DNA from: Escherichia coli
Lineage (GTDB): Bacteria > Pseudomonadota > Gammaproteobacteria > Enterobacterales > Enterobacteriaceae
Assembly (NCBI RefSeq): GCF_003018255.1
Contig: NZ_CP027440.1
Strand: one strand, 5' to 3'
Length of the DNA stretch: 64,000 nucleotides
Below the pieces are notes generated by a model. It did no database searches. It worked only from the letters and a program-made list of their open reading frames with translations, and was not told the DNA's origin. Both the position numbers and the translations under genes were made by a program. Positions 855 through 61,722 of the stretch are shown one piece after another; the first letter of the stretch is position 1; every line of letters starts with the position of its first letter.

Positions 855-865
855 TAAAGCGATTT

Positions 866-1330: not shown

Positions 1331-1355
1331 AGCGCCACAAGGGCGCTTTAGTTTG
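1323..1355. terminator. Bidirectional rho-independent terminator at soxR 3' end
   Basis: Inverted repeat AAACTAAAGCGCC..GGCGCTTTAGTTT straddling the soxR stop, with T-runs on both strands. Confidence 0.6.
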
Positions 1356-1465: not shown

Positions 1466-1875
1466 TTTAATTGTATGTCACCGGCGTTTCTTCGCCAGTG
1501 TAAAAGTACACTTTTTAGCCGCAATATTTTTGTCATCTCAGACGATTTTTTATCGCAATCCTGAACGGTATACGGCTCGATAACGCTGCAATCTTGCGCA
1601 TCGACGATAACGTTTGCGCATCAATTGCCTGGTTTTTCATCGTCAAGACAATAAAAGAGAAAAAAGCAGCAAACTTCGGTTGAAAAAGCCGCTATGATCG
1701 CCGGATAATCGTTTGCTTTTTTTACCACCCGTTTTGTATGCGCGGAGCTAAACGTTTGCTTTTTTGCGACGCACCAATTTGTCGCAAACCTGGAGCAGGA
1801 AGATAACGTTTCGCTGGCAGGGGATTGTCCGCCACGCATCTTGACGAAAATTAAACTCTCAGGGGATGTTTTCTT

Positions 1876-3225
1876 ATGTCTACGCCATCAGCGCGTACCG
1901 GCGGTTCACTCGACGCCTGGTTTAAAATTTCACAACGTGGAAGCACTGTCCGTCAGGAAGTGGTTGCCGGGTTAACAACATTTCTGGCGATGGTCTACTC
2001 GGTTATCGTCGTTCCAGGCATGTTGGGTAAAGCAGGCTTCCCGCCTGCGGCAGTTTTCGTTGCGACCTGTCTGGTTGCCGGACTCGGTTCTATCGTGATG
2101 GGTCTGTGGGCTAATCTGCCGTTGGCGATTGGTTGCGCCATCTCCCTGACGGCGTTTACCGCATTCAGTCTGGTGCTGGGGCAACATATTAGCGTACCTG
2201 TCGCGCTGGGTGCCGTGTTCCTGATGGGTGTGCTGTTTACGGTCATTTCTGCCACGGGTATCCGTAGCTGGATTTTGCGCAACTTGCCGCACGGTGTGGC
2301 GCACGGCACGGGGATTGGTATCGGTCTGTTCCTGCTGCTGATTGCTGCTAATGGTGTCGGTCTGGTGATTAAAAACCCACTTGATGGTCTGCCCGTCGCG
2401 CTGGGGGATTTCACGACCTTTCCGGTGATGATGTCGTTGGTGGGGCTGGCAGTGATTATCGGCCTGGAAAAACTGAAAGTCCCTGGTGGCATTCTGCTGA
2501 CCATTATCGGTATCTCAATTGTCGGTTTGATCTTCGATCCTAACGTCCATTTCTCCGGCGTTTTCGCCATGCCTTCATTGAGCGATGAAAACGGCAATTC
2601 ACTAATTGGCAGCCTGGACATTATGGGCGCGCTGAATCCTGTAGTCCTGCCAAGCGTTCTGGCGCTGGTGATGACGGCAGTATTTGATGCCACCGGAACT
2701 ATCCGTGCCGTCGCCGGCCAGGCGAACCTGCTGGATAAAGATGGGCAGATCATCGACGGCGGGAAAGCACTGACCACTGACTCCATGAGCAGCGTTTTCT
2801 CTGGCCTGGTGGGTGCAGCTCCGGCAGCGGTATACATCGAGTCTGCGGCGGGTACGGCGGCGGGCGGTAAAACCGGTTTGACGGCTATCACCGTTGGCGT
2901 GCTGTTCCTGCTGATTCTGTTCCTCTCTCCGCTCTCTTACCTCGTTCCGGGGTATGCAACGGCTCCGGCGCTGATGTACGTTGGCCTGCTGATGCTGAGT
3001 AACGTGGCGAAAATCGACTTTGCTGATTTTGTTGATGCGATGGCGGGTCTGGTTACGGCGGTATTCATCGTGCTGACCTGTAACATCGTAACAGGCATCA
3101 TGATCGGCTTCGCGACTCTGGTGATTGGTCGTCTGGTTTCCGGCGAATGGCGCAAGTTGAACATCGGTACGGTCGTTATCGCTGTGGCGCTGGTGACCTT
3201 CTATGCGGGTGGCTGGGCTATCTAA
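1876..3225 (+). CDS. ghxP: Guanine/hypoxanthine permease (NCS2/AzgA family)
   Basis: 449-aa polytopic membrane ORF; position after soxR matches yjcD/ghxP. Confidence 0.9.
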
Positions 3226-3375
3226 TCTTTCATATGATTCTGAAAACGGGTGGCAATGGCTGCCCGTTTTTATTTTCTCCGCACATTGTGTGAGCTTTTG
3301 CGATATTCTGAAAAAATGAGAATTCAGGCATAACGCCTTTCTCAGATCATAAAAAACATCGCAAACAGGGAACGC

Positions 3376-5025
3376 ATGGAAATCTTCTTCACCATACTGA
3401 TAATGACCCTCGTGGTCTCGCTGTCCGGGGTGGTCACTCGTGTCATGCCCTTTCAGATCCCGCTTCCGCTTATGCAAATCGCCATCGGTGCGCTACTGGC
3501 GTGGCCGACGTTTGGTTTGCATGTGGAGTTTGATCCTGAACTCTTTTTAGTCTTGTTTATCCCGCCGTTGCTGTTCGCTGATGGCTGGAAAACGCCGACC
3601 CGTGAATTTCTCGAACATGGTCGAGAGATTTTCGGCCTCGCGCTGGCGCTGGTGGTGGTCACCGTGGTCGGCATTGGCTTTCTTATTTACTGGGTGGTGC
3701 CGGGCATTCCGCTGATCCCCGCCTTTGCGCTGGCGGCGGTGCTTTCTCCGACCGATGCTGTGGCGCTCTCGGGGATTGTTGGCGAAGGGCGCATCCCGAA
3801 AAAAATCATGGGCATTTTGCAGGGCGAAGCGTTGATGAATGACGCCTCCGGTCTGGTGTCGTTGAAGTTTGCCGTGGCAGTGGCGATGGGGACGATGATC
3901 TTCACCGTCGGTGGTGCGACGGTCGAATTTATGAAAGTGGCCATTGGCGGTATTCTCGCCGGTTTTGTGGTGAGCTGGCTGTACGGTCGCTCGCTGCGAT
4001 TCCTCAGCCGCTGGGGCGGTGATGAACCCGCGACGCAGATCGTCCTGCTGTTCCTGCTGCCATTCGCTTCTTATCTGATTGCCGAACATATTGGCGTTTC
4101 CGGTATCCTCGCTGCGGTTGCCGCCGGGATGACCATCACCCGTTCCGGTGTGATGCGCCGTGCGCCGCTGGCAATGCGCCTGCGCGCAAACAGTACCTGG
4201 GCGATGCTGGAATTTGTCTTTAACGGCATGGTATTCCTGCTGTTAGGTCTGCAGCTGCCGGGTATTCTGGAGACGTCGCTGATGGCGGCAGAAATCGACC
4301 CTAACGTCGAAATCTGGATGCTGTTTACCGATATCATTCTGATTTATGCGGCGCTGATGCTGGTCCGTTTCGGCTGGCTGTGGACGATGAAAAAGTTCAG
4401 CAACCGCTTCCTGAAGAAGAAGCCGATGGAGTTTGGTTCGTGGACCACACGAGAAATCCTGATCGCGTCTTTCGCCGGGGTGCGTGGGGCGATCACTCTG
4501 GCTGGTGTGCTCTCAATCCCGCTGCTCTTGCCGGATGGTAACGTCTTCCCGGCGCGCTATGAGCTGGTGTTCCTGGCGGCTGGTGTCATTCTCTTCTCGC
4601 TGTTTGTCGGCGTGGTGATGTTGCCTATTCTGCTACAACACATTGAAGTCGCGGACCATTCGCAACAATTGAAAGAGGAACGTATTGCGCGAGCGGCAAC
4701 GGCAGAAGTGGCGATTGTGGCGATCCAGAAAATGGAGGAGCGTCTGGCGGCGGATACCGAAGAGAATATCGATAACCAGCTGCTCACAGAGGTTAGTTCT
4801 CGCGTCATTGGTAACCTGCGTCGTCGCGCCGATGGACGTAACGACGTTGAAAGTTCCGTGCAGGAAGAGAACCTTGAGCGTCGCTTCCGTCTGGCGGCAT
4901 TGCGTTCTGAACGTGCTGAACTGTACCACCTGCGCGCCACGCGGGAGATCAGTAACGAAACGCTGCAAAAATTACTGCACGATCTCGATTTGCTTGAAGC
5001 GTTGCTGATTGAAGAGAACCAATAA
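3376..5025 (+). CDS. yjcE: Putative Na+/H+ exchanger (CPA1 family)
   Basis: 549-aa ORF with N-terminal multi-TM domain and charged C-terminal tail. Confidence 0.85.
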   Translation: MEIFFTILIMTLVVSLSGVVTRVMPFQIPLPLMQIAIGALLAWPTFGLHVEFDPELFLVLFIPPLLFADGWKTPTREFLEHGREIFGLALALVVVTVVGIGFLIYWVVPGIPLIPAFALAAVLSPTDAVALSGIVGEGRIPKKIMGILQGEALMNDASGLVSLKFAVAVAMGTMIFTVGGATVEFMKVAIGGILAGFVVSWLYGRSLRFLSRWGGDEPATQIVLLFLLPFASYLIAEHIGVSGILAAVAAGMTITRSGVMRRAPLAMRLRANSTWAMLEFVFNGMVFLLLGLQLPGILETSLMAAEIDPNVEIWMLFTDIILIYAALMLVRFGWLWTMKKFSNRFLKKKPMEFGSWTTREILIASFAGVRGAITLAGVLSIPLLLPDGNVFPARYELVFLAAGVILFSLFVGVVMLPILLQHIEVADHSQQLKEERIARAATAEVAIVAIQKMEERLAADTEENIDNQLLTEVSSRVIGNLRRRADGRNDVESSVQEENLERRFRLAALRSERAELYHLRATREISNETLQKLLHDLDLLEALLIEENQ

Positions 5026-5043
5026 CGCTTTGGCGGTGTAATC

Positions 5044-5076
5044 GGTAAAAAGGTGCAGTACATCGCACCTTTTTAC
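5044..5076. terminator. Bidirectional hairpin terminator between convergent yjcE and actP
   Basis: GGTAAAAAGGTGC-AGTACATC-GCACCTTTTTACC: stem flanked by A-run and T-run. Confidence 0.65.
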
Positions 5077-5107
5077 CGTTGGTCAGGTGACCAGAGGCTA
5101 GTGGAGA

Positions 5108-7068
<1,961 letters not shown>

Positions 7069-7149
7069 CACAGATTCTCCAGAGGTAATGTAGGGATTGT
7101 TTTAATTCCCGCTCCCTTATGGGAGAAGGTTAACGCTTGGGTAACCCTT

Positions 7150-7416
<267 letters not shown>

Positions 7417-7449
7417 AACCGTTACCGACTCGCATCGGGCAATTGTGGG

Positions 7450-9408
<1,959 letters not shown>

Positions 9409-9659
9409 GCTTTTGTTCTCCTTGTAGGATGTTAATAATATGTGGCATAAGCGTTAAATGTAGGGGTATTGGCAGTTTTGTTTAGTATTTGGGCGACAGA
9501 TCACGCAAAAGTAGAATTGTGCAAATAAACGGCAGGGTAATTTTTGAAGGTCAGCAACAAAAGTTGATTAATTCTTTGAGGAACATGCAGTTATGCATGC
9601 TGTTGAAAAAGAGGAAGATACTGACTAACTCTAAAGTGGTATTTTACATGCACTTACAA

Positions 9660-9673
9660 TTGATTAAAGACAA
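9660..9673. promoter_or_regulatory. Candidate FNR half-palindrome in the nrfA promoter region
   Basis: TTGATTAAAGACAA resembles TTGAT-N4-ATCAA; lies ~140 bp upstream of the nrfA start. Site assignment is inference. Confidence 0.3.
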
Positions 9674-9758
9674 CATTCACAGTGTGGTTATTTGTTACAC
9701 ATAGGGGCGAGCAATGTCATGACAGTGTAGGTGCGGTTACTGTCGTGAAAAACAATAA

Positions 9759-11237
<1,479 letters not shown>

Positions 11238-11281
11238 CCCCGTTCCGCCTCGCAAGGGGCGGAAAACACAATGGAGTGAAT

Positions 11282-11848
11282 ATGAGCGTATTACGTTCGT
11301 TATTAACTGCCGGGGTGCTGGCGTCGGGCCTGTTGTGGAGCCTGAACGGAATTACCGCTACCCCTGCGGCGCAGGCATCTGGTGATCGCTACGAAGTTAC
11401 CCAGCAGCGTAACCCGGATGCCGCCTGTCTGGACTGTCATAAGCCAGATACCGAAGGTATGCATGGCAAACATGCTTCCGTTATCAACCCGAATAACAAA
11501 CTGCCGGTCACCTGCACCAACTGCCACGGTCAGCCATCACCGCAACACCGCGAAGGGGTGAAAGATGTGATGCGCTTTAACGAGCCGATGTACAAGGTTG
11601 GAGAGCAGAACAGCGTCTGTATGTCCTGCCATCTGCCGGAACAGTTGCAAAAAGCGTTCTGGCCACACGATGTCCACGTAACCAAAGTGGCGTGCGCCAG
11701 CTGCCATTCCCTGCATCCACAGCAAGATACGATGCAGACGTTAAGTGACAAAGGACGGATTAAGATTTGCGTCGATTGCCACAGCGATCAGCGCACCAAT
11801 CCGAACTTTAACCCGGCGTCTGTTCCGTTGCTTAAGGAGCAGCCATGA
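11282..11848 (+). CDS. nrfB: Pentaheme cytochrome c NrfB
   Basis: 188-aa ORF with five CXXCH motifs (CLDCH, CTNCH, CMSCH, CASCH, CVDCH). Confidence 0.9.
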
Positions 11849-12516
11849 CCTGGTCTCGTCGCCAGTTTCTCACCGGCGTCGGCGTGCTGGCAGCCGTCAG
11901 CGGCACCGCAGGGCGCGTGGTGGCGAAAACGTTGAATATCAATGGGGTGCGTTACGGCATGGTGCATGACGAGTCGTTATGCATCGGCTGTACCGCCTGT
12001 ATGGATGCTTGTCGGGAAGTGAACAAGGTGCCGGAAGGCGTCTCGCGCCTGACGATTATTCGTAGCGAGCCGCAGGGCGAATTTCCTGATGTGAAATATC
12101 GCTTCTTCCGTAAGTCTTGCCAGCACTGCGATCATGCGCCGTGCGTTGACGTCTGCCCGACCGGTGCGTCTTTTCGTGATGCCGCTAGCGGGATTGTCGA
12201 TGTTAATCCTGATCTCTGCGTCGGTTGTCAGTACTGCATCGCCGCCTGTCCGTACCGCGTGCGCTTTATCCATCCGGTCACGAAGACGGCGGACAAATGC
12301 GATTTCTGCCGTAAGACCAATTTGCAGGCCGGTAAGCTGCCCGCGTGCGTTGAAGCTTGCCCGACCAAGGCACTGACGTTTGGCAATCTGGACGATCCCA
12401 ACAGTGAGATTTCGCAACTGCTGCGCCAGAAGCCCACTTACCGCTACAAGCTGGCGCTGGGAACCAAACCGAAGCTGTACCGCGTACCGTTTAAATACGG
12501 GGAGGTGAGCCAATGA
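11845..12516 (+). CDS. nrfC: NrfC 4Fe-4S ferredoxin-type subunit (Tat signal)
   Basis: 223-aa ORF; N-terminal RRQFLTG twin-arginine motif and multiple CxxCxxCxxxCP clusters; start overlaps nrfB stop. Confidence 0.9.
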
Positions 12517-13469
12517 TGCAGACTTCCGCATTTCATTTTGAATCGCTGGTGTGGGACTGGCCGATTGCCATCTACCTGTTTTTGATTGGTATTTCTGCCG
12601 GTCTGGTGACGCTGGCCGTGCTGTTACGTCGCTTCTACCCGCAGGCGGGCGGTGCAGACAGTACGTTGCTGCGCACCACGCTAATTGTCGGGCCTGGCGC
12701 GGTGATCCTCGGTCTGTTGATCCTCGTCTTCCACCTGACAAAGCCGTGGACCTTCTGGAAGCTGATGTTCCACTACAGTTTTACCTCGGTGATGTCGATG
12801 GGGGTGATGTTGTTTCAGCTCTACATGGTGGTGCTGGTGCTGTGGCTGGCGAAAATCTTTGAACATGATTTGCTTGCCCTGCAACAACGCTGGTTGCCGA
12901 AGCTGGGGATCGTGCAAAAGGTTCTGAGCCTGCTGACGCCCGTTCATCGCGGACTGGAAACATTGATGCTGGTGCTGGCGGTGCTGCTGGGGGCTTATAC
13001 CGGCTTTCTGCTGTCGGCGCTGAAATCGTATCCGTTCCTCAATAACCAGATCCTGCCGGTGCTGTTCCTCTTCTCCGGCATCTCGTCCGGTGCGGCGGTA
13101 GCGCTGATCGCCATGGCGATACGCCAACGCAAAAATCCGCATTCCACGGAAGCGCACTTTGTTCACCGTATGGAAATCCCTGTGGTATGGGGTGAAATCT
13201 TCCTGCTGGTGGCGTTTTTTGTCGGTCTGGCGCTGGGCGATGACGGTAAAGTGCGTGCGCTGGTGGCGGCATTAGGTGGCGGTTTCTGGACGTGGTGGTT
13301 CTGGCTTGGTGTCGCCGGGCTGGGGCTGATTGTGCCAATGTTGCTCAAACCGTGGGTCAATCGCAGTTCCGGCATTCCTACCGTGCTGGCGGCGTGTGGG
13401 GCCAGTCTGGTCGGCGTGTTGATGCTGCGCTTTTTCATTCTCTACGCCGGACAGTTGACGGTGGCGTAA
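12513..13469 (+). CDS. nrfD: NrfD integral membrane quinol-interacting subunit
   Basis: 318-aa polytopic ORF overlapping the nrfC stop. Confidence 0.9.
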   Translation: MMQTSAFHFESLVWDWPIAIYLFLIGISAGLVTLAVLLRRFYPQAGGADSTLLRTTLIVGPGAVILGLLILVFHLTKPWTFWKLMFHYSFTSVMSMGVMLFQLYMVVLVLWLAKIFEHDLLALQQRWLPKLGIVQKVLSLLTPVHRGLETLMLVLAVLLGAYTGFLLSALKSYPFLNNQILPVLFLFSGISSGAAVALIAMAIRQRKNPHSTEAHFVHRMEIPVVWGEIFLLVAFFVGLALGDDGKVRALVAALGGGFWTWWFWLGVAGLGLIVPMLLKPWVNRSSGIPTVLAACGASLVGVLMLRFFILYAGQLTVA

Positions 13470-13524
13470 GCCAGAAAAGAGGTGGTTTCTGGACGTATTC
13501 CTTCCTGAAGTCGGTTTTCTGGCG

Positions 13525-15207
13525 TTGTTGTTAAGTCTCGGGGTCAACGTGTTGACCCCGTTGACGGCCTTCGCGGGAGTGCGGTTGCGCTGGCCTGCCA
13601 TGATGCGACTCACTTGCATCGGCATTCTGGCGCAGTTCGCGCTCCTGCTGCTCGCCTTTGGCGTACTGACGTATTGTTTTCTCATCAGCGATTTCTCGGT
13701 CATTTATGTCGCCCAACATAGCTACAGCCTGCTGTCGTGGGAACTCAAACTGGCGGCGGTGTGGGGCGGTCATGAAGGTTCGCTGCTGCTTTGGGTGCTG
13801 CTGCTTTCCGCCTGGAGCGCGCTGTTTGCCTGGCATTATCGGCAGCAAACCGATCCGCTATTTCCGCTAACGCTAGCCGTTTTATCTCTCATGCTCGCCG
13901 CACTGCTACTGTTTGTAGTGCTGTGGTCCGATCCCTTCGTGCGGATATTTCCACCAGCAATCGAAGGCCGCGATCTCAATCCGATGCTGCAACATCCCGG
14001 TCTTATCTTTCATCCACCGCTGCTTTACCTTGGCTATGGCGGTTTGATGGTGGCGGCGAGCGTGGCGCTGGCGAGTTTACTGCGCGGCGAGTTTGATGGT
14101 GCCTGCGCCCGAATTTGCTGGCGCTGGGCGTTACCTGGCTGGAGTGCATTAACGGCTGGGATCATCCTCGGTTCCTGGTGGGCCTATTGCGAACTGGGCT
14201 GGGGCGGCTGGTGGTTCTGGGATCCGGTGGAAAACGCCTCTTTATTACCCTGGCTTTCTGCCACTGCGCTGCTGCACAGTTTGTCCCTGACACGCCAGCG
14301 GGGGATTTTCCGCCACTGGTCGCTGCTGCTGGCGATAGTTACTCTGATGCTGTCGCTGCTGGGCACCTTAATTGTCCGTTCTGGCATTCTGGTTTCGGTT
14401 CATGCGTTCGCACTGGATAACGTCCGCGCCGTGCCGTTGTTCAGCCTGTTTGCACTGATTAGCCTTGCGTCTCTGGCTCTGTATGGCTGGCGAGCGCGGG
14501 ACGGTGGCCCGGCGGTGCGTTTTTCGGGGTTATCGCGGGAAATGTTAATCCTCGCTACGCTGTTGCTGTTTTGCGCAGTGCTACTGATCGTGCTGGTGGG
14601 AACGCTTTATCCGATGATTTACGGTCTGCTGGGCTGGGGACGCCTCTCCGTTGGCGCGCCGTATTTTAACCGCGCGACGTTACCGTTTGGTCTGTTGATG
14701 CTGGTGGTGATTGTGCTGGCGACGTTTGTCTCTGGCAAACGCGTGCAGCTTCCGGCGCTGGTAGCTCATGCTGGCGTGCTGTTATTTGCCGCGGGGATCG
14801 TGGTTTCCAGCGTCAGTCGTCAGGAGATCAGCCTGAATTTACAGCCGGGTCAGCAGGTGACGCTGGCAGGATACACCTTCCGTTTTGAGCGACTCGATCT
14901 GCAAGCCAGAGGCAATTACACCAGCGAAAAAGCGATAGTGGCGCTGTTTGACCATCAGCAACGCATTGGTGAACTGACGCCGGAGCGGCGTTTTTATGAA
15001 GCACGCCGTCAGCAAATGATGGAACCGTCAATTCGCTGGAACGGCATCCATGACTGGTATGCGGTCATGGGCGAGAAAACCGGAGCGGATCGTTACGCTT
15101 TTCGTTTGTATGTACAAAGCGGTGTGCGCTGGATCTGGGGGGGAGGATTGTTGATGATTGCGGGCGCATTGTTAAGCGGATGGCGGGGGAGGAAGCGCGA
15201 TGAATAA
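13525..15207 (+). CDS. nrfE: NrfE heme lyase (CcmF-like)
   Basis: ~552-560-aa polytopic ORF with Trp-rich segment (WGGWWFWDPVEN); exact start uncertain. Confidence 0.85.
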   Translation: MLLSLGVNVLTPLTAFAGVRLRWPAMMRLTCIGILAQFALLLLAFGVLTYCFLISDFSVIYVAQHSYSLLSWELKLAAVWGGHEGSLLLWVLLLSAWSALFAWHYRQQTDPLFPLTLAVLSLMLAALLLFVVLWSDPFVRIFPPAIEGRDLNPMLQHPGLIFHPPLLYLGYGGLMVAASVALASLLRGEFDGACARICWRWALPGWSALTAGIILGSWWAYCELGWGGWWFWDPVENASLLPWLSATALLHSLSLTRQRGIFRHWSLLLAIVTLMLSLLGTLIVRSGILVSVHAFALDNVRAVPLFSLFALISLASLALYGWRARDGGPAVRFSGLSREMLILATLLLFCAVLLIVLVGTLYPMIYGLLGWGRLSVGAPYFNRATLPFGLLMLVVIVLATFVSGKRVQLPALVAHAGVLLFAAGIVVSSVSRQEISLNLQPGQQVTLAGYTFRFERLDLQARGNYTSEKAIVALFDHQQRIGELTPERRFYEARRQQMMEPSIRWNGIHDWYAVMGEKTGADRYAFRLYVQSGVRWIWGGGLLMIAGALLSGWRGRKRDE

Positions 15208-15583
15208 AGGACTTCTCACGCTACTGCTGTTATTTACCTGTTTTGCGCGCGCTCAGGTCGTAGACACCTGGCAATTCGCCAATCCGCAACAACAGCAACA
15301 GGCGTTAAATATTGCCAGCCAGTTACGTTGTCCGCAGTGCCAGAATCAAAACTTACTGGAATCCAACGCGCCGGTGGCGGTCAGTATGCGCCATCAGGTT
15401 TACAGCATGGTGGCGGAGGGGAAGAACGAAGCTGAAATCATCGGCTGGATGACCGAACGCTACGGAGATTTTGTTCGCTATAACCCACCGTTAACGGGCC
15501 AGACGCTGGTGTTGTGGGCGCTGCCAGTGGTGTTGTTACTGCTGATGGCACTGATCCTCTGGCGAGTGAGGGCGAAGCGATGA
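15200..15583 (+). CDS. nrfF: NrfF (CcmH-like thiol-disulfide protein)
   Basis: 127-aa ORF with signal peptide and CPQC motif. Confidence 0.88.
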
Positions 15584-16176
15584 AACAGTCACAAATACCG
15601 GTGAAAATGCTGACAACACTCACGATTTTGATGGCATTTCTCTGTATCGGCAGTTATCTGTTAAGCCCAAAATGGCAGGCGGTACGTGCGGAGTATCAGC
15701 GTCAGCGCGATCCGCTGCATCAGTTTGCCAGCCAGCAAACCCCAGAAGCGCAGCTTCAGGCATTGCAGGATAAAATCCGCGCTAATCCACAAAACAGCGA
15801 ACAGTGGGCGTTACTGGGCGAGTACTATCTGTGGCAAAATGATTACAGCAATTCGCTGCTGGCGTACCGTCAGGCGTTGCAACTACGTGGTGAGAACGCT
15901 GAACTGTATGCGGCGCTGGCGACGGTGCTTTATTACCAGGCCAGCCAGCATATGACCGCCCAGACACGCGCAATGATCGATAAAGCCCTCGCGCTGGACT
16001 CTAACGAAATCACCGCTCTGATGCTGCTGGCTTCCGATGCGTTTATGCAGGCGAATTACGCGCAGGCCATCGAACTATGGCAAAAAGTGATGGATCTCAA
16101 CTCACCCCGGATCAACCGGACACAGCTGGTCGAGTCGATTAATATGGCGAAATTGTTGCAGCGGAGATCAGATTAA
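15580..16176 (+). CDS. nrfG: NrfG TPR-repeat heme lyase accessory protein
   Basis: 198-aa ORF from [14 protein letters not shown] overlaps nrfF TGA; TPR-like repeats. Confidence 0.85.
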
Positions 16177-16517
16177 TCATCTGGTGATGAAGATTATGTT
16201 ATTGAGCTGCATAAAAAATAATCGAATGAACATATGCCAAAAATAATCACCAATCAGTATTATTGCAGATTAAACAAATAAAAATCTTTCCATAACAAAT
16301 GGTTATTCATTAATCCTGCCATAAACTCGCGTTATTATGCATTAATGCAGCGAAAAGCTCTGTTGTTAAAGGGTTGCGCAACATACCGCGCAAATGATAC
16401 TGATCATAAGCGTTAAAAAAATCTACAAACCAACGCAACACAATTCATGCCCTGGCAGTATGTCACGTTCTCGCGTTTCTGAACGGGGAACGGCGCTCCA
16501 TTGAGGAAGTTATTCTG

Positions 16518-17831
16518 ATGAAAAATATAAAATTCAGCCTGGCCTGGCAGATTCTGTTTGCTATGGTGCTGGGCATTCTCCTGGGAAGCTACCTGCACTA
16601 CCATAGCGACAGCCGCGACTGGCTGGTCGTCAATTTGCTCTCTCCGGCGGGTGATATCTTCATCCATCTGATCAAAATGATTGTTGTGCCGATTGTGATC
16701 TCCACGCTGGTGGTGGGTATCGCGGGTGTTGGTGATGCCAAACAGCTCGGGCGTATTGGCGCGAAAACCATTATTTACTTCGAGGTGATCACCACCGTCG
16801 CCATCATTTTGGGGATCACTCTGGCGAACGTCTTCCAGCCCGGTGCCGGGGTGGATATGTCGCAGCTGGCGACCGTCGATATCTCGAAATATCAGAGCAC
16901 TACGGAAGCGGTACAAAGCAGTTCCCACGGCATTATGGGCACGATTTTGTCGCTGGTGCCGACGAACATTGTGGCGTCGATGGCGAAAGGCGAAATGCTG
17001 CCGATCATCTTCTTCTCGGTGCTGTTTGGTCTGGGGCTTTCATCCCTGCCCGCGACGCATCGTGAACCGCTGGTGACCGTTTTCCGCTCCATCTCTGAAA
17101 CCATGTTTAAAGTGACTCACATGGTGATGCGTTATGCGCCGGTGGGTGTGTTTGCGCTGATTGCGGTGACGGTGGCTAACTTTGGTTTCTCGTCTCTGTG
17201 GCCACTGGCGAAACTGGTGCTGCTGGTGCATTTCGCCATTCTGTTCTTCGCGCTGGTAGTGCTGGGAATTGTGGCGCGCCTGTGCGGGTTAAGCGTCTGG
17301 ATCCTGATTCGTATTCTGAAAGATGAGCTGATTCTGGCGTACTCCACTGCCAGCTCTGAAAGCGTGCTGCCGCGAATTATTGAGAAGATGGAAGCCTACG
17401 GAGCACCGGCGTCGATCACCAGTTTCGTGGTGCCGACCGGTTACTCTTTTAACCTTGATGGTTCGACGCTGTATCAAAGTATTGCCGCTATTTTCATCGC
17501 GCAGTTGTATGGCATTGACCTGTCCATCTGGCAGGAAATCATTCTGGTGCTGACGCTGATGGTGACCTCGAAAGGGATTGCTGGCGTGCCGGGCGTGTCG
17601 TTTGTGGTGTTGCTGGCAACGCTGGGTAGCGTAGGTATTCCGCTGGAAGGTCTGGCGTTTATTGCCGGTGTTGACCGTATCCTCGACATGGCGCGTACTG
17701 CGCTGAACGTGGTGGGTAATGCGCTGGCGGTGCTGGTGATTGCCAAGTGGGAACACAAATTTGACCGTAAGAAAGCGCTGGCTTATGAGCGCGAAGTGCT
17801 GGGCAAATTTGATAAAACTGCGGATCAATAA
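16518..17831 (+). CDS. gltP: Glutamate/aspartate:proton symporter (DAACS family)
   Basis: 437-aa polytopic ORF recognised as GltP. Confidence 0.92.
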   Translation: MKNIKFSLAWQILFAMVLGILLGSYLHYHSDSRDWLVVNLLSPAGDIFIHLIKMIVVPIVISTLVVGIAGVGDAKQLGRIGAKTIIYFEVITTVAIILGITLANVFQPGAGVDMSQLATVDISKYQSTTEAVQSSSHGIMGTILSLVPTNIVASMAKGEMLPIIFFSVLFGLGLSSLPATHREPLVTVFRSISETMFKVTHMVMRYAPVGVFALIAVTVANFGFSSLWPLAKLVLLVHFAILFFALVVLGIVARLCGLSVWILIRILKDELILAYSTASSESVLPRIIEKMEAYGAPASITSFVVPTGYSFNLDGSTLYQSIAAIFIAQLYGIDLSIWQEIILVLTLMVTSKGIAGVPGVSFVVLLATLGSVGIPLEGLAFIAGVDRILDMARTALNVVGNALAVLVIAKWEHKFDRKKALAYEREVLGKFDKTADQ

Positions 17832-17871
17832 TTGAAGATTGCCGGGGATATCCACCCGGCAATATGTGGAT

Positions 17872-18247
17872 GCCTGATGCGACGCTTACCGCGTCTTATC
17901 AGGCCTACGCCAGACTGCGCAATAGCTTGATTTAGGGTGATTTTGTAGGTCGGATAAGGCGTTTACGCCGCATCCGACATCAATATCTGATGCGACGCTT
18001 GCCGCGTCTTATCAGGCCTACGCCAGACTGCGCAATAGCTTGATTTAGGGTGATTTTGTAGGTCGGATAAGGCGTTTACGCCGCATCCGACATCAATATC
18101 TGATGCGACGCTTACCGCGTCTTATCAGGCCTACGCCAGACTGCGCAATAGCCTGATTTAGCGTGATTTTGTAGGTCGGATAAGGCGTTTACGCCGCATC
18201 CGACATCAATGCCTGATGCGACGCTTACCGCGTCTTATCAGGCCTAC
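17872..18247. repeat. BIME/REP array, three full units plus one partial, 113-bp period
   Basis: CTGATGCG motif recurs at 17874, 17987, 18100, 18213 (exact 113-bp spacing); units contain REP palindromes; fills the gltP-yjcO spacer. Confidence 0.85.
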
Positions 18248-18248
18248 C

Positions 18249-18938
18249 TTAACCGTTAGTTAATTTTTCAAACTCTTCACACCCGGTATCAAACCCTTCC
18301 ATACAGCTCAGATTTAACCAGTGCAGCGCCTTTTGTTTGTTCTTCTCGATAAAACCTTCTTCACCGTTTAAGAACATCATTCCCGCCCAGTACTCGGAAT
18401 AACCGGTTCGGGAAATCGCAGAGCTGCGTTTGAAATACCAGGTTGCCTTGTCATCGTCGGCCTTAATGCCCACGCCGTTGGCGTAAATCAAACCAAGCAG
18501 CATTTGGGCATCGACGGCAGAGTCGTTCTCCAGATCTTCCGAGGCGTTTTCTAACAGCGAAATTGCCTTTGGATAATCCGGTTTACCCGCTTGCGTATTT
18601 ACCAGAATATGCGCCAGCGTTACTTCACCTTCTTTACTGCCCGCTTGCGCCGCTTTCTCTGCAAGAACTTTTGCTTGTGGATAGTCCAGACTGACCGGAT
18701 TGGTGATTTTGATCTGCGCTAACAGCGCGCAGGCATCAGCATCACCGCTGTCGGCGGCTTTCTGTGCCCAATATTCGGCTTTGCTCAAATCGCCGGAGCT
18801 AAACCAGCTGTCGGCAAGAAAATATTGTGCGCGTCGGTCCCCTGCCTCTGCTGCCTTTAAATACTGGCTGCCAGGCTCGGAGTCGTTCGCGTGGGCAAAG
18901 AATGTCAAAAACAACATCAATGCGATAATTTTTTTCAT
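18249..18938 (-). CDS. yjcO: Sel1-repeat periplasmic protein
   Basis: 229-aa ORF with signal peptide and Sel1-like repeats. Confidence 0.8.
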   Translation of the reverse strand: MKKIIALMLFLTFFAHANDSEPGSQYLKAAEAGDRRAQYFLADSWFSSGDLSKAEYWAQKAADSGDADACALLAQIKITNPVSLDYPQAKVLAEKAAQAGSKEGEVTLAHILVNTQAGKPDYPKAISLLENASEDLENDSAVDAQMLLGLIYANGVGIKADDDKATWYFKRSSAISRTGYSEYWAGMMFLNGEEGFIEKNKQKALHWLNLSCMEGFDTGCEEFEKLTNG

Positions 18939-18989
18939 TTTGATAATACGATTGGGTAGGGAGTAACCAGTATAAAGAGTTCGAATGGA

Positions 18990-19018
18990 TAAAAAAACAG
19001 CCTCCGAAAGGAGGCTGT
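18990..19018 (-). terminator. Rho-independent terminator downstream of fdhF
   Basis: Hairpin CAGCCTCC-GAAA-GGAGGCTG followed by a T-run on the minus strand. Confidence 0.6.
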
Positions 19019-19031
19019 AGAAAGGACTGTA

Positions 19032-21179
19032 TTACGCCAGTGCCGCTTCGCGCAGGCGAGTTTTCAACTTGTTGTACTCGTCAATCACGTACTGCTCGGC
19101 GGCGCGCTGATCGGCGATCGGCTCGACGCGCACGGCGCAGTATTTGTATTCCGGCGTTTTCGTAATCGGGCTTAAGTTTTCGGTCACCAGCTCGTTACAG
19201 GCACCAATCCACCACTGGTAGGTCATGTAAATCGCCCCTTTGTTCGGACGATCGCTGACCTGCGCACGGGTGATAATTTTGCCTTTACGCGAGTGCACCC
19301 AAACCAATGCCTCATCTTCAATACCCAGACGTTTGGCGTCTTCGGTATTGATTTGTGCGTAGCCAGGTTCATCAGCCAGCGCCGCCAGTGCCGCACAGTT
19401 ACCGGTCATCGAACGGCAAGAGTAGTGACCAACTTCACGCACCGTTGACAGTACCATCGGGTATTCGTCGGTGAGTTTGTCGATTGGCGCTACCCAGTCG
19501 CAGGTGAAGAACTGCGCCAGACCGTTCGGGGTATCAAACTTCTCTTTAAACAGATAAGAAGTCCCCTGATCGGCATCTGAAGTATCGCGGCAAGGCCACT
19601 GAATGAAGCCCAGTTCGCCCATTTTCTCGTAAGTCGCACCGTAGAAATCCGGGCACAGATGACGCAACTCGTCCCAGATCTCCTGGGTGTTGTTGTAGTG
19701 CATCGGATAACCCATACGAGTGGCAATTTCACTGATGATTTGCCAGTCCGTTTTCAGATCCCACTTCGGCTCAACCGCCTTGAAGAAACGCTGGAAGCCA
19801 CGGTCAGCCGCAGTAAACACGCCTTCATGCTCGCCCCACGACGTTGACGGTAAAATGACATCCGCCGCCGACGCGGTTTTGGTCATAAAGATGTCCTGAA
19901 CGATAACCAGTTCCAGATCTTCAAAGGCTTTACGTACTGCCGACAGTTCCGCGTCAGTTTGCAGCGGATCTTCGCCCATAATGTACGCCGCTCTCACTTC
20001 ACCATGCGCCACGCGGTGCGGCAGCTCGCTGATGCGATAGCCGGTATGAGCAGGCAGGCTTTCCACGCCCCAGGCTTTGGCGAATTTCTCGCGGTTAGCC
20101 GGATCTTTCACGTACTGATAGCCCGGATACGTATCCGGCAGCGCGCCCATATCGCAGGCACCCTGCACGTTGTTCTGACCACGAACCGGGTTTACACCCG
20201 CATGTGGCTTACCGAGGTTACCGGTCAGCATCGCGAGGCTGGTCAGAGAACGCACGGTTTCCACGCCCTGATAGAACTGGGTTACCCCCATGCCCCACAG
20301 GATGGCGGCGCTTTCTGCCTGGGCATACATCCGCGCCGCCTGACGAATCTCACTGGCGCTGACGCCGGTGATATCTTCAACCGACTCCGGCGTGTAGCCT
20401 TCAACGATTTTACGATACTCTTCAAAGCCTTCTGTACGGGAAGCGACGAACGCTTTGTCGTACAGATTTTCTTCAATAATGACATGGCCCATCGCATTCA
20501 ACAGCGCGATGTTCGAGCCGTTTTTCAATGCAATGTGCATGTCAGCAATGCGCGCGGTTTCAATTTTACGCGGATCGCAGACGATAATTTTCGCCCCGTT
20601 ACGTTTAGCGTTAATTACGTGATTCGCCACGATTGGGTGGGAATCCGCCGGGTTATACCCGAAAACGAACACTAAATCGGTATTATCAATTTCGTTAATA
20701 GCATTGCTCATTGCGCCATTACCGACCGATTGGTGCAGACCTGCAACCGATGGGCCGTGTCAGACACGAGCGCAGCAGTCAACGTTATTGGTACCAATAA
20801 CGGCGCGCGCAAATTTTTGCATTACATAGTTGGTTTCGTTACCCGTACCGCGCGAGGAGCCGGTCGTCTGGATGGCATCCGGACCGTACTTCTCTTTGAT
20901 GGCGCTCAGGCGCTCGGCAACGTAATTCAGTGCCTCATCCCAGGAAACAGGTTCGAGTTTGCCGCCACGCTGGCGACGGATCATGGGGGTTTTCAGGCGC
21001 GGGGTCAGGATCTGGGTATCGTTAATGAAGTCCCAGCCATAATAACCCTTCAGACACAGGGTACCCTGGTTGGTTTTCCCCTGCGCTGCCTCCGCCCGGA
21101 CGATTTTGCCGTTATCGACGACCAGGTTGATTTTGCAACCTGATGCGCAATAGGGGCAAACCGTGACGACTTTTTTCAT
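19032..21179 (-). CDS. fdhF: Formate dehydrogenase H, selenocysteine-containing (UGA recoded)
   Basis: 139-aa and 559-aa track ORFs are in frame across a single TGA at 20757..20759 (..CCARV-U-HGPSVAG..); total 715 codons; N-terminal CPYCASGC cluster. Confidence 0.92.
20715..20756 (-). other. SECIS hairpin immediately 3' of the fdhF UGA codon
   Basis: Sequence CACGGCCCATCGGTTGCAGGTCTGCACCAATCGGTCGG directly after the in-frame UGA can form the stem-loop expected for bacterial Sec insertion. Confidence 0.7.
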
Positions 21180-45021: not shown

Positions 45022-46038
45022 TTACTGCACCGCTTTACTCACCGAACTCATCGCGCTTAACGCGTTGTTCAGGCGGTCCAGGTCATCCAGTTGCGCCTGA
45101 ATGGCGCTGGTTTTTGCCAGCTTGTCCTGCTCATTCAGCCCTTTATTGCCTTTCACGCCCTGCATCTCTTTAAACAGCGCGAGCTGGCGAATCGGCACCA
45201 GTTGCAGGTCGCTGGAGGCGCGGAACGGGGCCCAGCCCAGGCGTTCCAGCACCGCTTTCTCTTCCGGCGTTTTGCCGTAGTTCATAAAGAAGTCGTAGAT
45301 CTTGTCTTTGGTGGTTTCGGACAGATTTTTGCGCCAGACGATCGGATCGCCTGGGATCAGCGGCGATTTCCAGATCACCTTCAGTTCTTTGAGCTTCTCC
45401 GGTGCGGAGGTTTTCAGCTTGTCGAGGTTTTCGGTGTTGTTGGTCGCCACATCCACCTGTTTGTTGGCGACGGCCAGCGCGTTGGTTTCATGCCCGGCGT
45501 TGACGGTGCGCTTGAAGTCGCTGGCGGAGATATTGTTTTTGGCGAAGACGTAGTAGCCGGGGACGAGGAAGCCAGAGGTGGAGTTAGGATCGCCATTGCC
45601 AAAGGTGAGATCTTTACGCTTCGCCAGCAGATCGTTCAGGTTGTTGATCGGACTGTCTTTGTTGACGATCAACACGCTCCAGTAACCTGGCGATCCATCC
45701 GCCGCGACCGTCTGGGCGAAGACCTGACCGTTGGCGCGATCCACCGCTTCCATCGCCGACAGATTGCCGTACCAGGCGATATCCACTTTGTTGAAGCGCA
45801 TTCCCTGGATAATGCCCGCGTAGTCCGGGGCAAAGAAGGCGTTGACCTTTACGCCCAGCTTCTTCTCCATATCCTGTAAGAACGGCGTCCATTGCGGTTT
45901 CAGGTTTTGCTGTGATTCCGTTGAAATAATGCCGAAATTCAGCGCCTTTTCCTGCTCTTCGGCGTGCGCCGGGCTTAACAGGGTGCTGAGGCTGAACATG
46001 CTGGTGAAGGCCAGCGAGGCAATTATCTTAGCGTTCAT
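45022..46038 (-). CDS. phnD: Periplasmic phosphonate-binding protein
   Basis: 338-aa ORF with signal peptide. Confidence 0.9.
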   Translation of the reverse strand: MNAKIIASLAFTSMFSLSTLLSPAHAEEQEKALNFGIISTESQQNLKPQWTPFLQDMEKKLGVKVNAFFAPDYAGIIQGMRFNKVDIAWYGNLSAMEAVDRANGQVFAQTVAADGSPGYWSVLIVNKDSPINNLNDLLAKRKDLTFGNGDPNSTSGFLVPGYYVFAKNNISASDFKRTVNAGHETNALAVANKQVDVATNNTENLDKLKTSAPEKLKELKVIWKSPLIPGDPIVWRKNLSETTKDKIYDFFMNYGKTPEEKAVLERLGWAPFRASSDLQLVPIRQLALFKEMQGVKGNKGLNEQDKLAKTSAIQAQLDDLDRLNNALSAMSSVSKAVQ

Positions 46039-46062
46039 TCGTTTTCCTCAATGATGGGGATG

Positions 46063-46851
46063 TCAGGCAGCTTTCGCGTTCTCTTCAATGCGATTAATGC
46101 TGCGGTAGAGATGGTCAAAACGTTCGTTATCAAACAGTTGGCTGCTGCCGTCGTAAAAGACGTGCCCCTGACGCAGGGCGACGATGCGTTCGCAGTAGCG
46201 CAGGGCGTAATCCACCTGATGTAGCGTGACGACCACGGTGATGCCGTCGTTCTGGTTGATGTCGCGCAGGGTGTCCATCACGATGCGCGCCGATTCCGGG
46301 TCCAGCGAGGCGATGGGTTCGTCCGCCAGAATCACCTTCGCCTGCTGCATCAGCGCGCGGGCAATCGCCACACGCTGTTGCTGTCCGCCGGAGAGGGTGG
46401 AAACGCGCTGATGGGCAAAGTGCACCATGCCAACGCGGGTCAGCGCCTGTAACGCGCGCTGTTTCTGCTCGCGGGTGAAGTAGCTAAAACAGGTGCGCCA
46501 GAATGGCGTGCTGCCGAGCGCGCCAATCAGCACGTTCTCCAGTACGCTCAGGCGATTCACCAGGTTGAATTGTTGGAAGATGTAGCCGGTATTGGCGCGG
46601 CTTTTGCGGATATCGCGGGCCAGGCGGCCTTCGCGCTGGACTGTGCGGCCCAGCAGCTCGATATGGCTACCGGCAGATTTATCGCCGGTAATCAAACCGC
46701 TTAAGTGACGTAAAAGGGTGGATTTGCCGGAACCCGACGGCCCAAGCAGAGCCACCATTTCACCGTGATGAATGTTCAGATCAACCGCGTGCAGCGCCTG
46801 ATGCTGATTGAAGGTTTTGGCGAGCTTCTCGACACGGATAATCGTTTGCAT
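46063..46851 (-). CDS. phnC: Phosphonate ABC transporter ATPase
   Basis: 262-aa ORF with Walker [10 protein letters not shown] and LSGGQQQR signature. Confidence 0.92.
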
Positions 46852-56882: not shown

Positions 56883-58220
56883 TTAATCTTTGCTTATTGG
56901 TGCATCTAAGGGATACGGGTTTTTATGCAGCCGGTTGTAATTCAGCGCATACATGGCGGTGATTACCATCAGAGTGACAAATGACCACATAACCTCTTTC
57001 GCGCCGGACCCTACCACGGCCCAGATGCAGTAGAGGAAGGCAATGGTAGTCACTGCCAGGTATGCCGGGCGTGCTTTACCAAAGTGACCGTGGCCGAGCA
57101 GTAGTAACGCCGCACAGGTGTAAAGATATGGCACCAGTGTAAAGATGACCGACACGGAAGAAACCAGACCGAATTCTTTGGTCGCGTTTGGCGAAATGCT
57201 ACTGAGCTGGAAGATGGTCATCAAAATACCGACGATAATCAGCCCCGCCACTGGCGTGCCCGCTTTATTAACACGGGCAAAAATCGGTGGGAACAGTCCG
57301 TCATCGGCAGCGGCTTTCGCCGTTTGACCCGCCAGCAACGTCCAGCCGCCCAGTGAACCTAAGCAACCCGCAGCTGCGCAGAAGGAAACAATGGCCCCGG
57401 CGGTGTCACCCAACGCCATCCGTGCGGCATCACCGAATGGCGAAGCAGAAACGCGCAGTGCGGCATTAGGGATCATCCCCATAATCGCGGTGGTAGAAAG
57501 TACATAGCAAACGGCAGCAATCAATACCCCGCCAATGGTGGCGATAGGGACGTTGCGTTTCGGGTTTTTCACCACACCTGCGGCAACGGAGGCACTTTCC
57601 ACACCGATGAACGACCACAGCGTAACGTTAAGGGTACTTTGAATCGCACCGAAGGTGCCCAGACCGCTGACGTTCCATGCCGCCATATAGGTTTCACCAC
57701 GGAACCAGAACCAGCCAAATACGGCAATCCCGACGATGGGGATCAGCGCCAGCACGGTAGCAACGGCCTGTACGCGGGTGATCATTTTCGGACCGACAAT
57801 GTTCAGCAGGACGAAGATCCACAGCACCACGACGCAGGTGATGGTTAATACCAATGGGTCTTTCAGAATCGGGAAGAAGTAACTTAAATATCCTACGCCA
57901 ATGACCACCATGGCGATATTGCCGATCCAGCAGGCCAGCCAGTAGAGGACGTTGGTTTGATAACCGAGAAACGGGCCAAAGCAGCGGCGGGCGTAAGCGT
58001 AAGAACCACCAGGACTTGGGTCGAGGAACGACATTTTGGCGTATACCATCGAGAGCCCCAGCGCACCGATAATCGTCACCAACCATCCATAAATGGCAAT
58101 CCCGCCAGTGGAGGCCAGGTTTGCAGGTAACAGAAAAACACCTGACCCCATAATATTCCCCGACACCATCAGGGTGACGGGGATTAAGCCCACTTTGTGA
58201 GCATCAGCATCCGAAGACAT
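56883..58220 (-). CDS. adiC: Arginine:agmatine antiporter (APC family)
   Basis: 445-aa 12-TM ORF. Confidence 0.92.
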
Positions 58221-58356: not shown

Positions 58357-59118
58357 TCAGGCGACAGTGCGTTCTCTGTGCTGACTAACATAATGCAGCG
58401 GCGTCATACCGTAGAAGTCTTTAAAGACAGAAATAAAGTACGACGTACTGTTGTAGCCGCAGGACTGTGATACCTGAGAGATATTTTTACCGTCCATCAT
58501 TAATTCATTTACGGCATAGCGCATGCGGCAGGTGGTGATTATTTGGCTATAACTGGTGTTTTCGCTTTTCAGCTTTTTCTTTAACAGACTTGGGCTAAGA
58601 CATAAACAACTGGCTACCATACTAAGATTCCAGTCTTTGTGGATATCGCTTTCAATAATTTGATAAACGCTGTCACTTACACAATTACGTAACATATACA
58701 TCATTAGTGAAAGGAATTTTTTACTGTCGAGAAAACGGGATAGCACAGTGAATAATAATGCACGTGTTCGTTCCTTTTCTGACTCAGTTTCAGCGGGCAT
58801 CATGCTATGTTGCGCGGCAACGCGAAAGACGTCTGGCGTCAGGCATGGAAGGGTGAGGATGGGCGTAGCGCTACGTTGCCATACTGGTATTTGCGAGAGA
58901 TCTTTATTCAGAAACCGGAGGTAATCTTTGATGATGTCGTGACTAATATGAGCAACCAAAGTGTTATTAAGAGAGGAGACGTCGATAATATTATTTTCAC
59001 AATTTAATAACGCCATATGGTTAGCTTTAAGGCTAATAGGTTCTTTCCCATTCACCCTTATCCAGACATCTTTTTCAGTCAATAAAACAATACAAGGTTG
59101 GTCGCTGCAAATCCTCAT
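58357..59118 (-). CDS. adiY: AraC-family regulator AdiY
   Basis: 253-aa ORF with C-terminal AraC-type HTH; AT-rich coding and flanks. Confidence 0.88.
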   Translation of the reverse strand: MRICSDQPCIVLLTEKDVWIRVNGKEPISLKANHMALLNCENNIIDVSSLNNTLVAHISHDIIKDYLRFLNKDLSQIPVWQRSATPILTLPCLTPDVFRVAAQHSMMPAETESEKERTRALLFTVLSRFLDSKKFLSLMMYMLRNCVSDSVYQIIESDIHKDWNLSMVASCLCLSPSLLKKKLKSENTSYSQIITTCRMRYAVNELMMDGKNISQVSQSCGYNSTSYFISVFKDFYGMTPLHYVSQHRERTVA

Positions 59119-59312
59119 ACATGTACTCCTGAGTGCGAATAAAAGACCAGTTCTCGCTAAAGCGAAGCGATACCGGGAAATGGTTATATAATTGTATGAT
59201 GAATATAAACATGCATAAAAATAACGAGTTTTACTAATATTACAAATTTTTATAGTAATTTCTCATGTACATATTTTTTTACAGGCTAAAAAAAGGATAA
59301 ATAACAGGCAAA

Positions 59313-59340
59313 AAAAAAGCGCGGGGTGGGACCGCGCAAA
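59313..59340 (-). terminator. Rho-independent terminator downstream of adiA
   Basis: Minus-strand GCGCGGTCCCACCCCGCGC followed by TTTTTTTTT. Confidence 0.7.
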
Positions 59341-59454: not shown

Positions 59455-61722
59455 TTACGCTTTCACACACATAACGTGGTAAATACCGTCAATAATTTCT
59501 GTCCCTTCTGTTTCGTGTTCAAATCCAGGGAAATGATGGTCCCAGGATTGCAGCGAGCGTAAATAACTTACTTGCGGACTGTTTTTATCGCCGAAGTTTT
59601 CACCAGACAGCAGCATCGGGATTCCTGGCGGATACGGGATAACTGAGTTTGCCGCGATACGTCCTGGCAGATTTTCAATGGATACCAGTTCGACATTGTT
59701 GTCGACAATCGCGTTGTACGCTTCACGCGGGGTGATTTCCGCCACCGGCAGGCCGGAATAGGCTTCGTTCAACCGTGCGCCAGGGTTGTTTTCTTTCAGC
59801 CAGGCAAACATGGTGTCACCCAGATCGTGAATCCCCATGTTCGCGTAAGTGTCAGGATATTGTTCAACAAGTTCCGGCATCACCTGCGCCAGCGGTGTGT
59901 TGGCGTCATAGTGGCGTTTGAAGGAGCAAAGGGTGTTAACCAGAGTCCCCCATTTCCCACGGGTTACGCCCATAGAGAACAGGAACATAATTTGGAAGTC
60001 AGTGGTGCGGGTAGGCACAATGCCGTGGCGACCAAGCCAGGCAGTGACCAGCGCCGCCGGAACACCGGTTTCTTCCAGTTCACCATCTTCACCCATTCCC
60101 GGAGCAAGGATGCTGACTTTAATCGGGTCGAGCATACTCCAGTTATCCGGAATATCTTTGAAGCCGTGCCAGCTTTCGCCCGGATGCATTACCCAGCAGT
60201 CCTGAACGGTGGTCAGCAGTTTGGTTGGTGCGTCAGCAAAGTCATAGGTTTTGCCGGTTTGTGGGTCGGTGACGACTTCTTTGTTCCACGGTTTGAAGAA
60301 CCAGCTACCGTCAGCGGTGAACTCTTTATACAGCCGCGCCATCGCCTGACGAAAATCAACCGCTTCGTCGATCACTTCCTGCGTCAGTGACAGGCCGCTG
60401 TTGCCGTCCATCATCGACACCGCCACGTCGTTGGATGCGCAGATGGCATACAGCGGGGAGGTGGTGGCATGCATCATGTAGGCCTGGTTGAAGCGGGAGA
60501 AGTTAATCGCCCCACGACCTTCACGTACATGAATATAAGAGGCCTGTGACAGTGCATTCAGCAGTTTGTGGGTGGAGTGGGTGGCGAAAACGGTAGGACC
60601 GTTGTGATCGCCAGGTTCGCCGCGCATGGCATAGTGATCGGCATAGATCGGGTTGAAACGTGCATAGCCGTACCAGGCTTCGTCAAAGTGCAGACGATCG
60701 GAGGTTTTTTCCAGCAGATCCTGCGCTTCTTTAGCGTTATAACACACGCCGTCATAAGTACAGTTGGTCACCACGCAGTAAGACGGTTTTTGCCCGGCTT
60801 TGTCTTTAGTCAGCGGGCTTTCACTGATTTTCTTCTGCAAGGTTTCAGGTTGCATTTCCTGCGGATAGATTGGCCCGATAATGCCGTAGCGGTTGCGGCT
60901 TGGCACCATGTAGACCGGTTTCGCGCCTGTCAGCATCAAGCCTTGTTCGATGGATTTATGGCAGTTACGGTCAACGACCACGACATCGTTATCGGTCATG
61001 CAAGCCTGCATGATAGTGCGGTTAGAGCCGGAAGTACCGACGACTACCGACCAGGAGCGATCGGCACCAAATACGCGTGCGGCATATTTTTCGCTTTCGC
61101 CAAATGCGCCAGTATGGTCAAGCAAAGAACCGAGGGAAGTGCGTTCGATGCCCATGTCGGTGCGGAACAGATTTTCACCATAGTAGTCATGGTAGAAACG
61201 TCCGGCGGGTGTTTTGGTAAAACCAACGCCACCCTGGTGGCCTGGCGCTGCCTAGGAATATTCATGGATGTCGCTATATTTCATCAGCGCGCTGAACAGT
61301 GGCGGCAACAGTTGCTGGCGGTAGCGGGTCATCGCGGCAACGGCGCGTCCGGCGATAAAGTCGGCGGTATCTTCCAGAATCCAGGCGAATTCATCGACAA
61401 GCTCCAGCAGATCCCGGTCCATTGCGGCGAGGGCTTTTTCCCGATCGCCCAACAGGAAGACCGGCACGTTTTGTTGGCGCTCATGAAGCTTACCGATCAA
61501 TTGTCTGACGTTTTGATGTTCGTCCGGATGTTCCATTTGATAGCTGAACATCAGGCAGTCAATGGCTTCGTTTGAAGAGAGAATGGCAAAACCATCATCA
61601 AAGGAGGTGGATTTAATCACGGTAACATTTTGCTGGCTTAAAGCATCTGCCAGACGCTCAACGGCGTTACCGACCCAGGTGTCTTGATGGAGAAACTCGC
61701 TTTCAACAATTAATACTTTCAT
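59455..61722 (-). pseudogene. adiA: Biodegradative arginine decarboxylase interrupted by an in-frame amber codon (TAG at 61252..61254)
   Basis: Track ORFs of 157 aa and 566 aa are in the same frame, separated by one TAG; translation reads ..KYSDIHEYS-stop-AAPGHQGGVGFTK.., where intact AdiA has Trp (TGG) as I recall it. Everything else is in frame for the 755-codon gene. Confidence 0.8.

Follow-up and report, generated by a model that had tools for sequence, protein, structure and literature searches.

The adi locus and the interrupted adiA frame

The window discussed here, by which we mean the whole stretch of 64,000 nucleotides of Escherichia coli DNA that was analysed, carries the locus order melR-adiA-adiY-adiC-eptA, which matches annotated E. 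coli genomes. The frame of adiA, the gene for the biodegradative arginine decarboxylase, lies at 59455..61722 on the minus strand and comprises 755 codons plus a stop codon, with one interruption in its translation. An alternative ATG is found at 61725 on the same strand, one codon 5′ of the ATG at 61722 (the product then beginning MMKV). The 755-residue numbering of RefSeq and PDB 2VYC, which we use unless otherwise stated, equals the numbering from this upstream ATG minus 1, such that W157* and W158* denote the same allele. From the ATG at 61725 or 61722, the frame runs to its natural stop at 59455-59457 and contains a single internal stop, an amber TAG at 61252..61254 (minus strand) in place of Trp157 (residue 158 counted from the upstream ATG). 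The 157-codon open reading frame at 61252..61725 and the 566-codon open reading frame at 59455..61155 belong to this one frame.

Between 61266 and 61240, the minus strand reads CAT GAA TAT TCC TAG GCA GCG CCA GGC, which confirms the in-frame TAG (as TAT TCC TAG GCA GCG) described in the initial annotation. That annotation had also attributed the stop to a single TGG-to-TAG transition, and the comparison with the closest allele from a complete genome, that of E. coli 2017.09.02CC (NZ_AP025214.2), is in agreement with this, as the two genes have one difference in 2271 nt, namely A for G on the gene strand at gene position 473 (window position 61253). The TGG to TAG change in adiA is thus a C to T change on the plus strand, with T at 61253 in the window and C in all close relatives. 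Since the amber codon is a single point difference, asking whether it exceeds chance is not the right test, and what matters is that intact alleles have TGG. The expectation of Trp at this codon holds on alignment, with TGG at codon 157 in every intact adiA allele examined and Trp at the corresponding position of the E. coli AdiA crystal structure 2VYC (context HEYSWAAPGH), to which the product with TGG restored is identical at 754 of 755 residues.

The two genes that accompany adiA were described in the initial annotation as intact, and they are: adiY, encoding an AraC-type activator (58357..59118, minus strand), and adiC, encoding the arginine:agmatine antiporter (56883..58220, minus strand), are both full length, with protein sequences identical to those of the relatives. 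Together with 55 further genes, this gives 57 other genes in the window that are full length in our comparisons, and no IS element and no other pseudogene were found in the 64 kb (58 genes checked). The only other in-frame stop among these 58 genes is a TGA at 20760-20762, codon 140 of fdhF (19035-21179, minus strand), which is no mark of a pseudogene but the codon known to specify selenocysteine in formate dehydrogenase H.

Several other features of the window are recorded here in their own right, with comparison loci designated by the letter L and a number. A 113-bp tandem repeat (3.3 copies, 97% matching) occupies 17874-18247 between gltP and yjcO, contains REP-like palindromes (GCCGGATGCG-type), and varies in copy number among the loci of the relatives. 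REP-like sequence (CAACGCCGGATGCGA) also surrounds position 7201, where the window has G and both E. coli JNE strains have T, and which may be a further SNP private to the window. The window is a mosaic in comparison to AP045069.1, being 99.98% identical over 1-19408 and 99.15% identical over 38324-60552. In the phnD/phnC region, 24 SNPs fall within ~800 bp (45445-46258) relative to the otherwise near-identical L028, and this cluster resembles a short patch of recombination. The window ends within melA, and past its right end the closest relatives (L001, L024, and L028-L032) have yjdF abutting melA, with melB absent; melB is retained in Shigella-type loci.

Domain loss and the expected phenotype

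AdiA is an acid-induced enzyme of the Orn/Lys/Arg decarboxylase family, with the type I fold of PLP enzymes. When TGG is restored, Pfam assigns three domains to it: OKR_DC_1_N (the wing domain) at residues 18-134, the major, PLP-binding OKR_DC_1 domain at 140-589, and a C-terminal domain at 615-742. All three are encoded in the DNA, and the stop at residue 157 parts the wing domain from the rest, so they are not encoded as one polypeptide. The N-terminal remnant (61252..61722, minus strand) has 156 residues, in line with the truncation point of ~156 residues given in the initial annotation (in the 755-residue numbering), and consists of the wing domain plus 17 residues from the start of the major domain. 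As the remainder of the major domain and the C-terminal domain follow the stop, the catalytic part is downstream of it and in the same frame, as had been claimed. The truncation is therefore predicted to leave the wing domain and to remove nearly all of the PLP catalytic domain. Compared to the known E. coli AdiA (2VYC) of the adiA-adiY-adiC acid-resistance system, the gene in the window is alike in its 754/755 residues after restoration, its three Pfam domains, and its neighborhood; unlike a working AdiA, its frame is cut at residue 157, which makes it a pseudogene allele. From what is established about the functions of AdiA and AdiC, the strain would be expected to have lost arginine-dependent acid resistance, a phenotype that is reasonable to predict from the gene sequence.

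This expectation would fail if adiA still gave rise to an active enzyme, whether by amber suppression through a supE-type tRNA, by natural readthrough, or by re-initiation at Met190. No other stop interrupts the frame before or after the amber, and the downstream open reading frame (566 codons from Met190, 59455..61155, minus strand) retains most of the major domain and provides the only possible restart. Its ATG at 61155 is, as the initial annotation had supposed, the first in-frame start after the stop. However, it lies 97 nt past the stop, no Shine-Dalgarno-like sequence is present in the 12 nt before it (ccgcaccgac ATG), and a product restarted there would lack the wing domain as well as the initial 50 residues of the major domain. 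The 64-kb window contains no tRNA gene, and hence no suppressor tRNA. Furthermore, one of the genomes that carries the same amber codon (L006, CP026845.1) shows a later frameshift and many further stops in adiA, as well as a shortened adiC, and such added damage to adiA is what one would expect of a gene that is already dead. Conservation of the stop, as a test for recoding, was not seen: the close relatives have TGG, TAG is also absent from all 5,426 complete E. coli genomes of RefSeq, and the position is thus no conserved recoding site. Taking these points together, we regard continued production of active enzyme as very improbable.

Dcm context and recurrence of the amber codon

The C to T change fell on the inner cytosine of what was a Dcm site, at 61252..61256 on the plus strand, ancestrally CCAGG and now CTAGG. 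CCWGG is the recognition site of Dcm, which 5-methylates the inner cytosine; deamination of 5-methylcytosine gives thymine, a change that Vsr very-short-patch repair normally counters. The genes dcm and vsr are both located beyond the window. In the scheme that we propose, a C to T change on the plus strand at 61253 struck this cytosine, which Dcm would have methylated at position 5 and which spontaneous deamination would then have turned into thymine, such that on the gene strand the TGG of Trp157 would become the amber TAG, and translation would stop after 156 residues. With only the wing domain left at that point, no PLP catalytic domain would be made. On balance, we find it somewhat probable that adiA in this window is a real null allele, recently arisen by such a C-to-T transition at a Dcm site.

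Coulondre and Miller are said to have described, in 1978, amber hotspots in lacI at Dcm sites. In natural E. coli, the C-to-T rate at the inner C of CCWGG is ~8-fold that at other cytosines, according to the work of Cherry (2018) as it is summarised in PMC9520237. The adiA change resembles these deamination hotspots in that it is a C to T change at the inner cytosine of CCAGG that creates an amber codon, and in that it recurs independently in different lineages (see below). It differs from the lacI hotspots in that it affects a Trp codon (TGG), read from the opposite strand, where those affect a Gln codon (CAG), and from Dcm hotspots in general in that we infer both the methylation of the site in this host and deamination as the cause of the change from the sequence.

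The gene offers many such targets, with 16 CCWGG sites in adiA (167 in the whole window), 10 of which would give an amber codon upon deamination. Two further Dcm sites lie close to the amber, at 61233..61245 on the minus strand (gene positions 481-485 and 489-493), the second of which has undergone a Gln-to-amber change in other strains. A CCTGG site at 61381..61385 (minus strand) covers Trp codon 115 in upstream-ATG numbering; it is intact in the window, and the codon is amber in L014, L019, L022, and E. coli H22. The tetramer CTAG, of which the adiA mutation makes one copy, occurs 9 times in the 64-kb window against ~248 expected from base composition, and this low count agrees with the known depletion of CTAG in E. 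coli. Elsewhere in the window, position 13830 is the inner C of a CCTGG Dcm site; three other loci checked also have C there, and the close relative L052 (AP045069.1) has T. The window and L052 differ at only 4 places in 19.4 kb, of which this is one, and very close genomes here show, whether through mutation or sequencing error, a Dcm-site transition for the second time.

The amber allele of the window is also present in other genomes. The identical 157-residue remnant product is found in 282 blocks of public assemblies, which include three complete Shigella-type chromosomes (CP026836.1, from Shigella boydii, CP026845.1, and CP026877.1) and many draft assemblies, and the NCBI names attached to this product are those of S. 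boydii. All of the stop alleles read at codon 157 (13-14) are TAG, and TGA was not seen. The other TAG alleles sit on adiA haplotypes that are 19-27 nt from that of the window and that also differ among themselves. On a neighbor-joining tree of 32 full-length adiA alleles, built with nonsense sites masked, the TAG state requires 8 changes as counted by the Fitch method. Three sets of TAG/TGG twins are only 0-1 nt apart (the window with L001/L028, L018 with L020, and L004/L009 with L044), and all four gametes are present between site 473 and markers 59 bp upstream and 22 bp downstream. As the same amber is found on several adiA haplotypes, including that of S. boydii, W157* has arisen repeatedly, and the haplotype distance of 19-27 nt and the differing flanking markers indicate that the copy in the window is an event independent of the Shigella-type TAG.

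These data also bear on whether the amber codon reached the window by homologous recombination with a Shigella-type adiA in which TAG was already present. Such alleles are common in Shigella-type haplotypes, and the region is mosaic elsewhere, as in the SNP cluster at 45445-46258 relative to L028. However, gene positions 414 and 495 are G and C in all other TAG alleles, but A and T in the window, as in its TGG relatives, and the adiA of the window is otherwise identical to that of L001 across the whole gene. Given the four gametes with markers 59 and 22 bp away, an imported tract would need to be shorter than 81 bp. We thus reject import on the basis of the flanking markers at 414 and 495, and consider it very improbable.

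In comparison to the W157* adiA of S. boydii and other Shigella-type genomes, the window shares the identical nonsense substitution and the 157-residue remnant. It is unlike them in that some of these genomes have decayed further in adiA, adiC, or melA (L006 and L008), whereas the window is without another damaged gene. A Shigella origin of the window is likewise unsupported, as it has no IS element and no damage in its other genes, and is most closely related to E. coli drafts and the E. coli JNE strains. No description of an adiA nonsense allele in Shigella or E. coli was found in the literature searched.

Other lesions in adiA limit what this recurrence can be taken to mean. In upstream-ATG numbering, the other nonsense alleles are W115* and Q164*, which are at Dcm sites, and Q137* and Q138*, which are not. 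Loci L014, L019, and L022 carry a double amber (W115* with Q164*), and L015 and L021 have an 8-bp deletion between the two CCAGG repeats at gene positions 481-485 and 489-493; as a separate observation on this locus, the adiC gene is deleted in L027. Three of the four Dcm ambers that are possible in the first 190 codons of adiA were seen, and Q137* and Q138* occur as well, with the counts of truncated products confounded by contig-end fragments and clonal sampling. A comparison based on counting the contigs for each truncated AdiA product (Dcm vs non-Dcm) was dropped for the same reasons: it failed because many of the short "products" are open reading frames ended by contig ends, as in five of the six places for the 137-residue product and in the single 156-residue match (L003), which are contig-end cuts and not stops. 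The proposition that all adiA nonsense lesions fall at Dcm sites was withdrawn, since Q137* and Q138* are real alleles that sit on several haplotypes, and for this reason recurrence alone is no proof of a Dcm-specific excess. For adiA knockouts as a whole, we accordingly make no claim that Dcm sites are the sole source.

Among the 5,426 complete RefSeq E. coli genomes, 5,406 of which have adiA at >80% coverage, W158*, Q164*, Q137*, and Q138* (upstream-ATG numbering) occur in none and W115* in one. Within this allele sample, adiA knockouts are seldom seen in E. coli proper and often in Shigella-type genomes. One could go further and suggest that selection has favoured the loss of adiA function time after time in Shigella and some E. 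coli lineages, that its cluster of in-frame Dcm sites (Trp115, Trp158, and Gln164, again in upstream-ATG numbering) act as ready-made off-switches from which identical amber alleles keep arising, and that the window is a fresh independent case in an otherwise intact genome, but we consider this broader reading unlikely.

Base-call error or real mutation, and what a loss would mean

The window has very close relatives, against which its individual bases can be read. L025 aligns over 22.2 kb with 0 mismatches and one indel, L035 over 22 kb with one SNP, and L028, which matches the adiA side, has TGG at the amber codon. Of these three, L025 and L028 extend across adiA, with 755 residues encoded in both. 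The near-identical relatives L025, L028, and L030-L032 all have an intact adiA of 755/756 residues with TGG. Over the 51 kb compared with such relatives, the only differences private to the window are the TAG codon and one additional base in a homopolymer. The latter lies in the intrinsic terminator of adiA (59310..59337, minus strand), in which a GC hairpin is followed by a T run (59310-59318). The run has 9 bases in the window; 28 other loci have 8 and three have 7. This A/T9 run is the only homopolymer of at least 8 bases in the 51 kb compared, and it holds the only indel of the window relative to its near-identical relatives. Neither the window haplotype with TAG nor the TAG 41-mer has a match in JGI metagenome contigs or in GTDB species representatives, and this, together with the absence of the amber from the complete RefSeq E. 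coli genomes noted above, indicates that the amber is, as far as these sequences reach, private to this strain.

The nature of the two private differences raises the possibility that the genome in fact has TGG, that a 5-methylcytosine within a Dcm motif was misread as T at 61253, and that the extra base in the A/T9 run is a second error, of a type that is common. According to Wick et al. 2019 (PMC6591954), ~70% of nanopore consensus errors lie in Dcm motifs, with homopolymer lengths next, and thus both private differences in 51 kb belong to the two leading classes of nanopore consensus error, which is what makes an artefact a serious rival. All close relatives have TGG and A8, and the haplotype with TAG has been found in no second sample. 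Against this, all but one of the 136 CCWGG sites and all but one of the 53 homopolymers of at least 6 bases agree with the relatives over the 51 kb, and there is no frameshift in the 57 other genes compared, whose full length indicates that the assembly is not generally error-ridden. Dcm sites and homopolymers are also the most mutable classes in real genomes, and the same TAG is genuine in many assemblies of other lineages. We regard a base-call artefact as quite possible but short of an even chance. The initial annotation had cautioned that the stop could be a sequencing error, a caveat that is justified, and all the more apt as the base in question sits within a Dcm methylation motif. Our verdict is that the adiA amber is either an ordinary null allele or a base-call error.

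If we proceed from the preferred reading, that of a real null allele, the loss can be set beside known losses of decarboxylases in enterobacteria: Shigella and EIEC have lost cadA/cadC (the cad locus), and in Salmonella Paratyphi C adiA is a pseudogene (PMC3143133). The case in the window is similar to such losses in host-adapted enterobacteria in that the gene of an inducible decarboxylase is inactivated and its neighbors persist. It differs in that the window is without IS elements or other pseudogenes and gives no sign of an invasive or host-restricted strain or of an adaptive loss. The signs of gene loss of the Shigella/EIEC type, namely IS expansion and decay of the surrounding genes, were absent from the window, with its 57 other genes intact. 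Nothing in the window points to a decaying or invasive genome.

The allele W157* of adiA is thus a nonsense pseudogene allele of a well-characterised gene, formed at a well-known type of hotspot, already present in Shigella genomes and apparently undiscussed in the literature searched. What the present analysis adds to the initial annotation is the Dcm-hotspot context of the change, its recurrence in Shigella and other lineages, and its private status in this strain. For annotation, it serves as a caution, as a stop made at CCWGG lies where long-read assemblies err, and because of such long-read errors, pseudogene calls of this kind need verification before they are interpreted. If the amber is real, the strain would be without one system for survival in extreme acid while keeping the regulator and the antiporter; the loss of an acid-resistance system bears on phenotype prediction, and is a routine kind of strain-level variation. 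More generally, a recurrent amber at a presumably methylated cytosine would show, as a modest point and in natural genomes, Dcm methylation biasing which knockouts arise.
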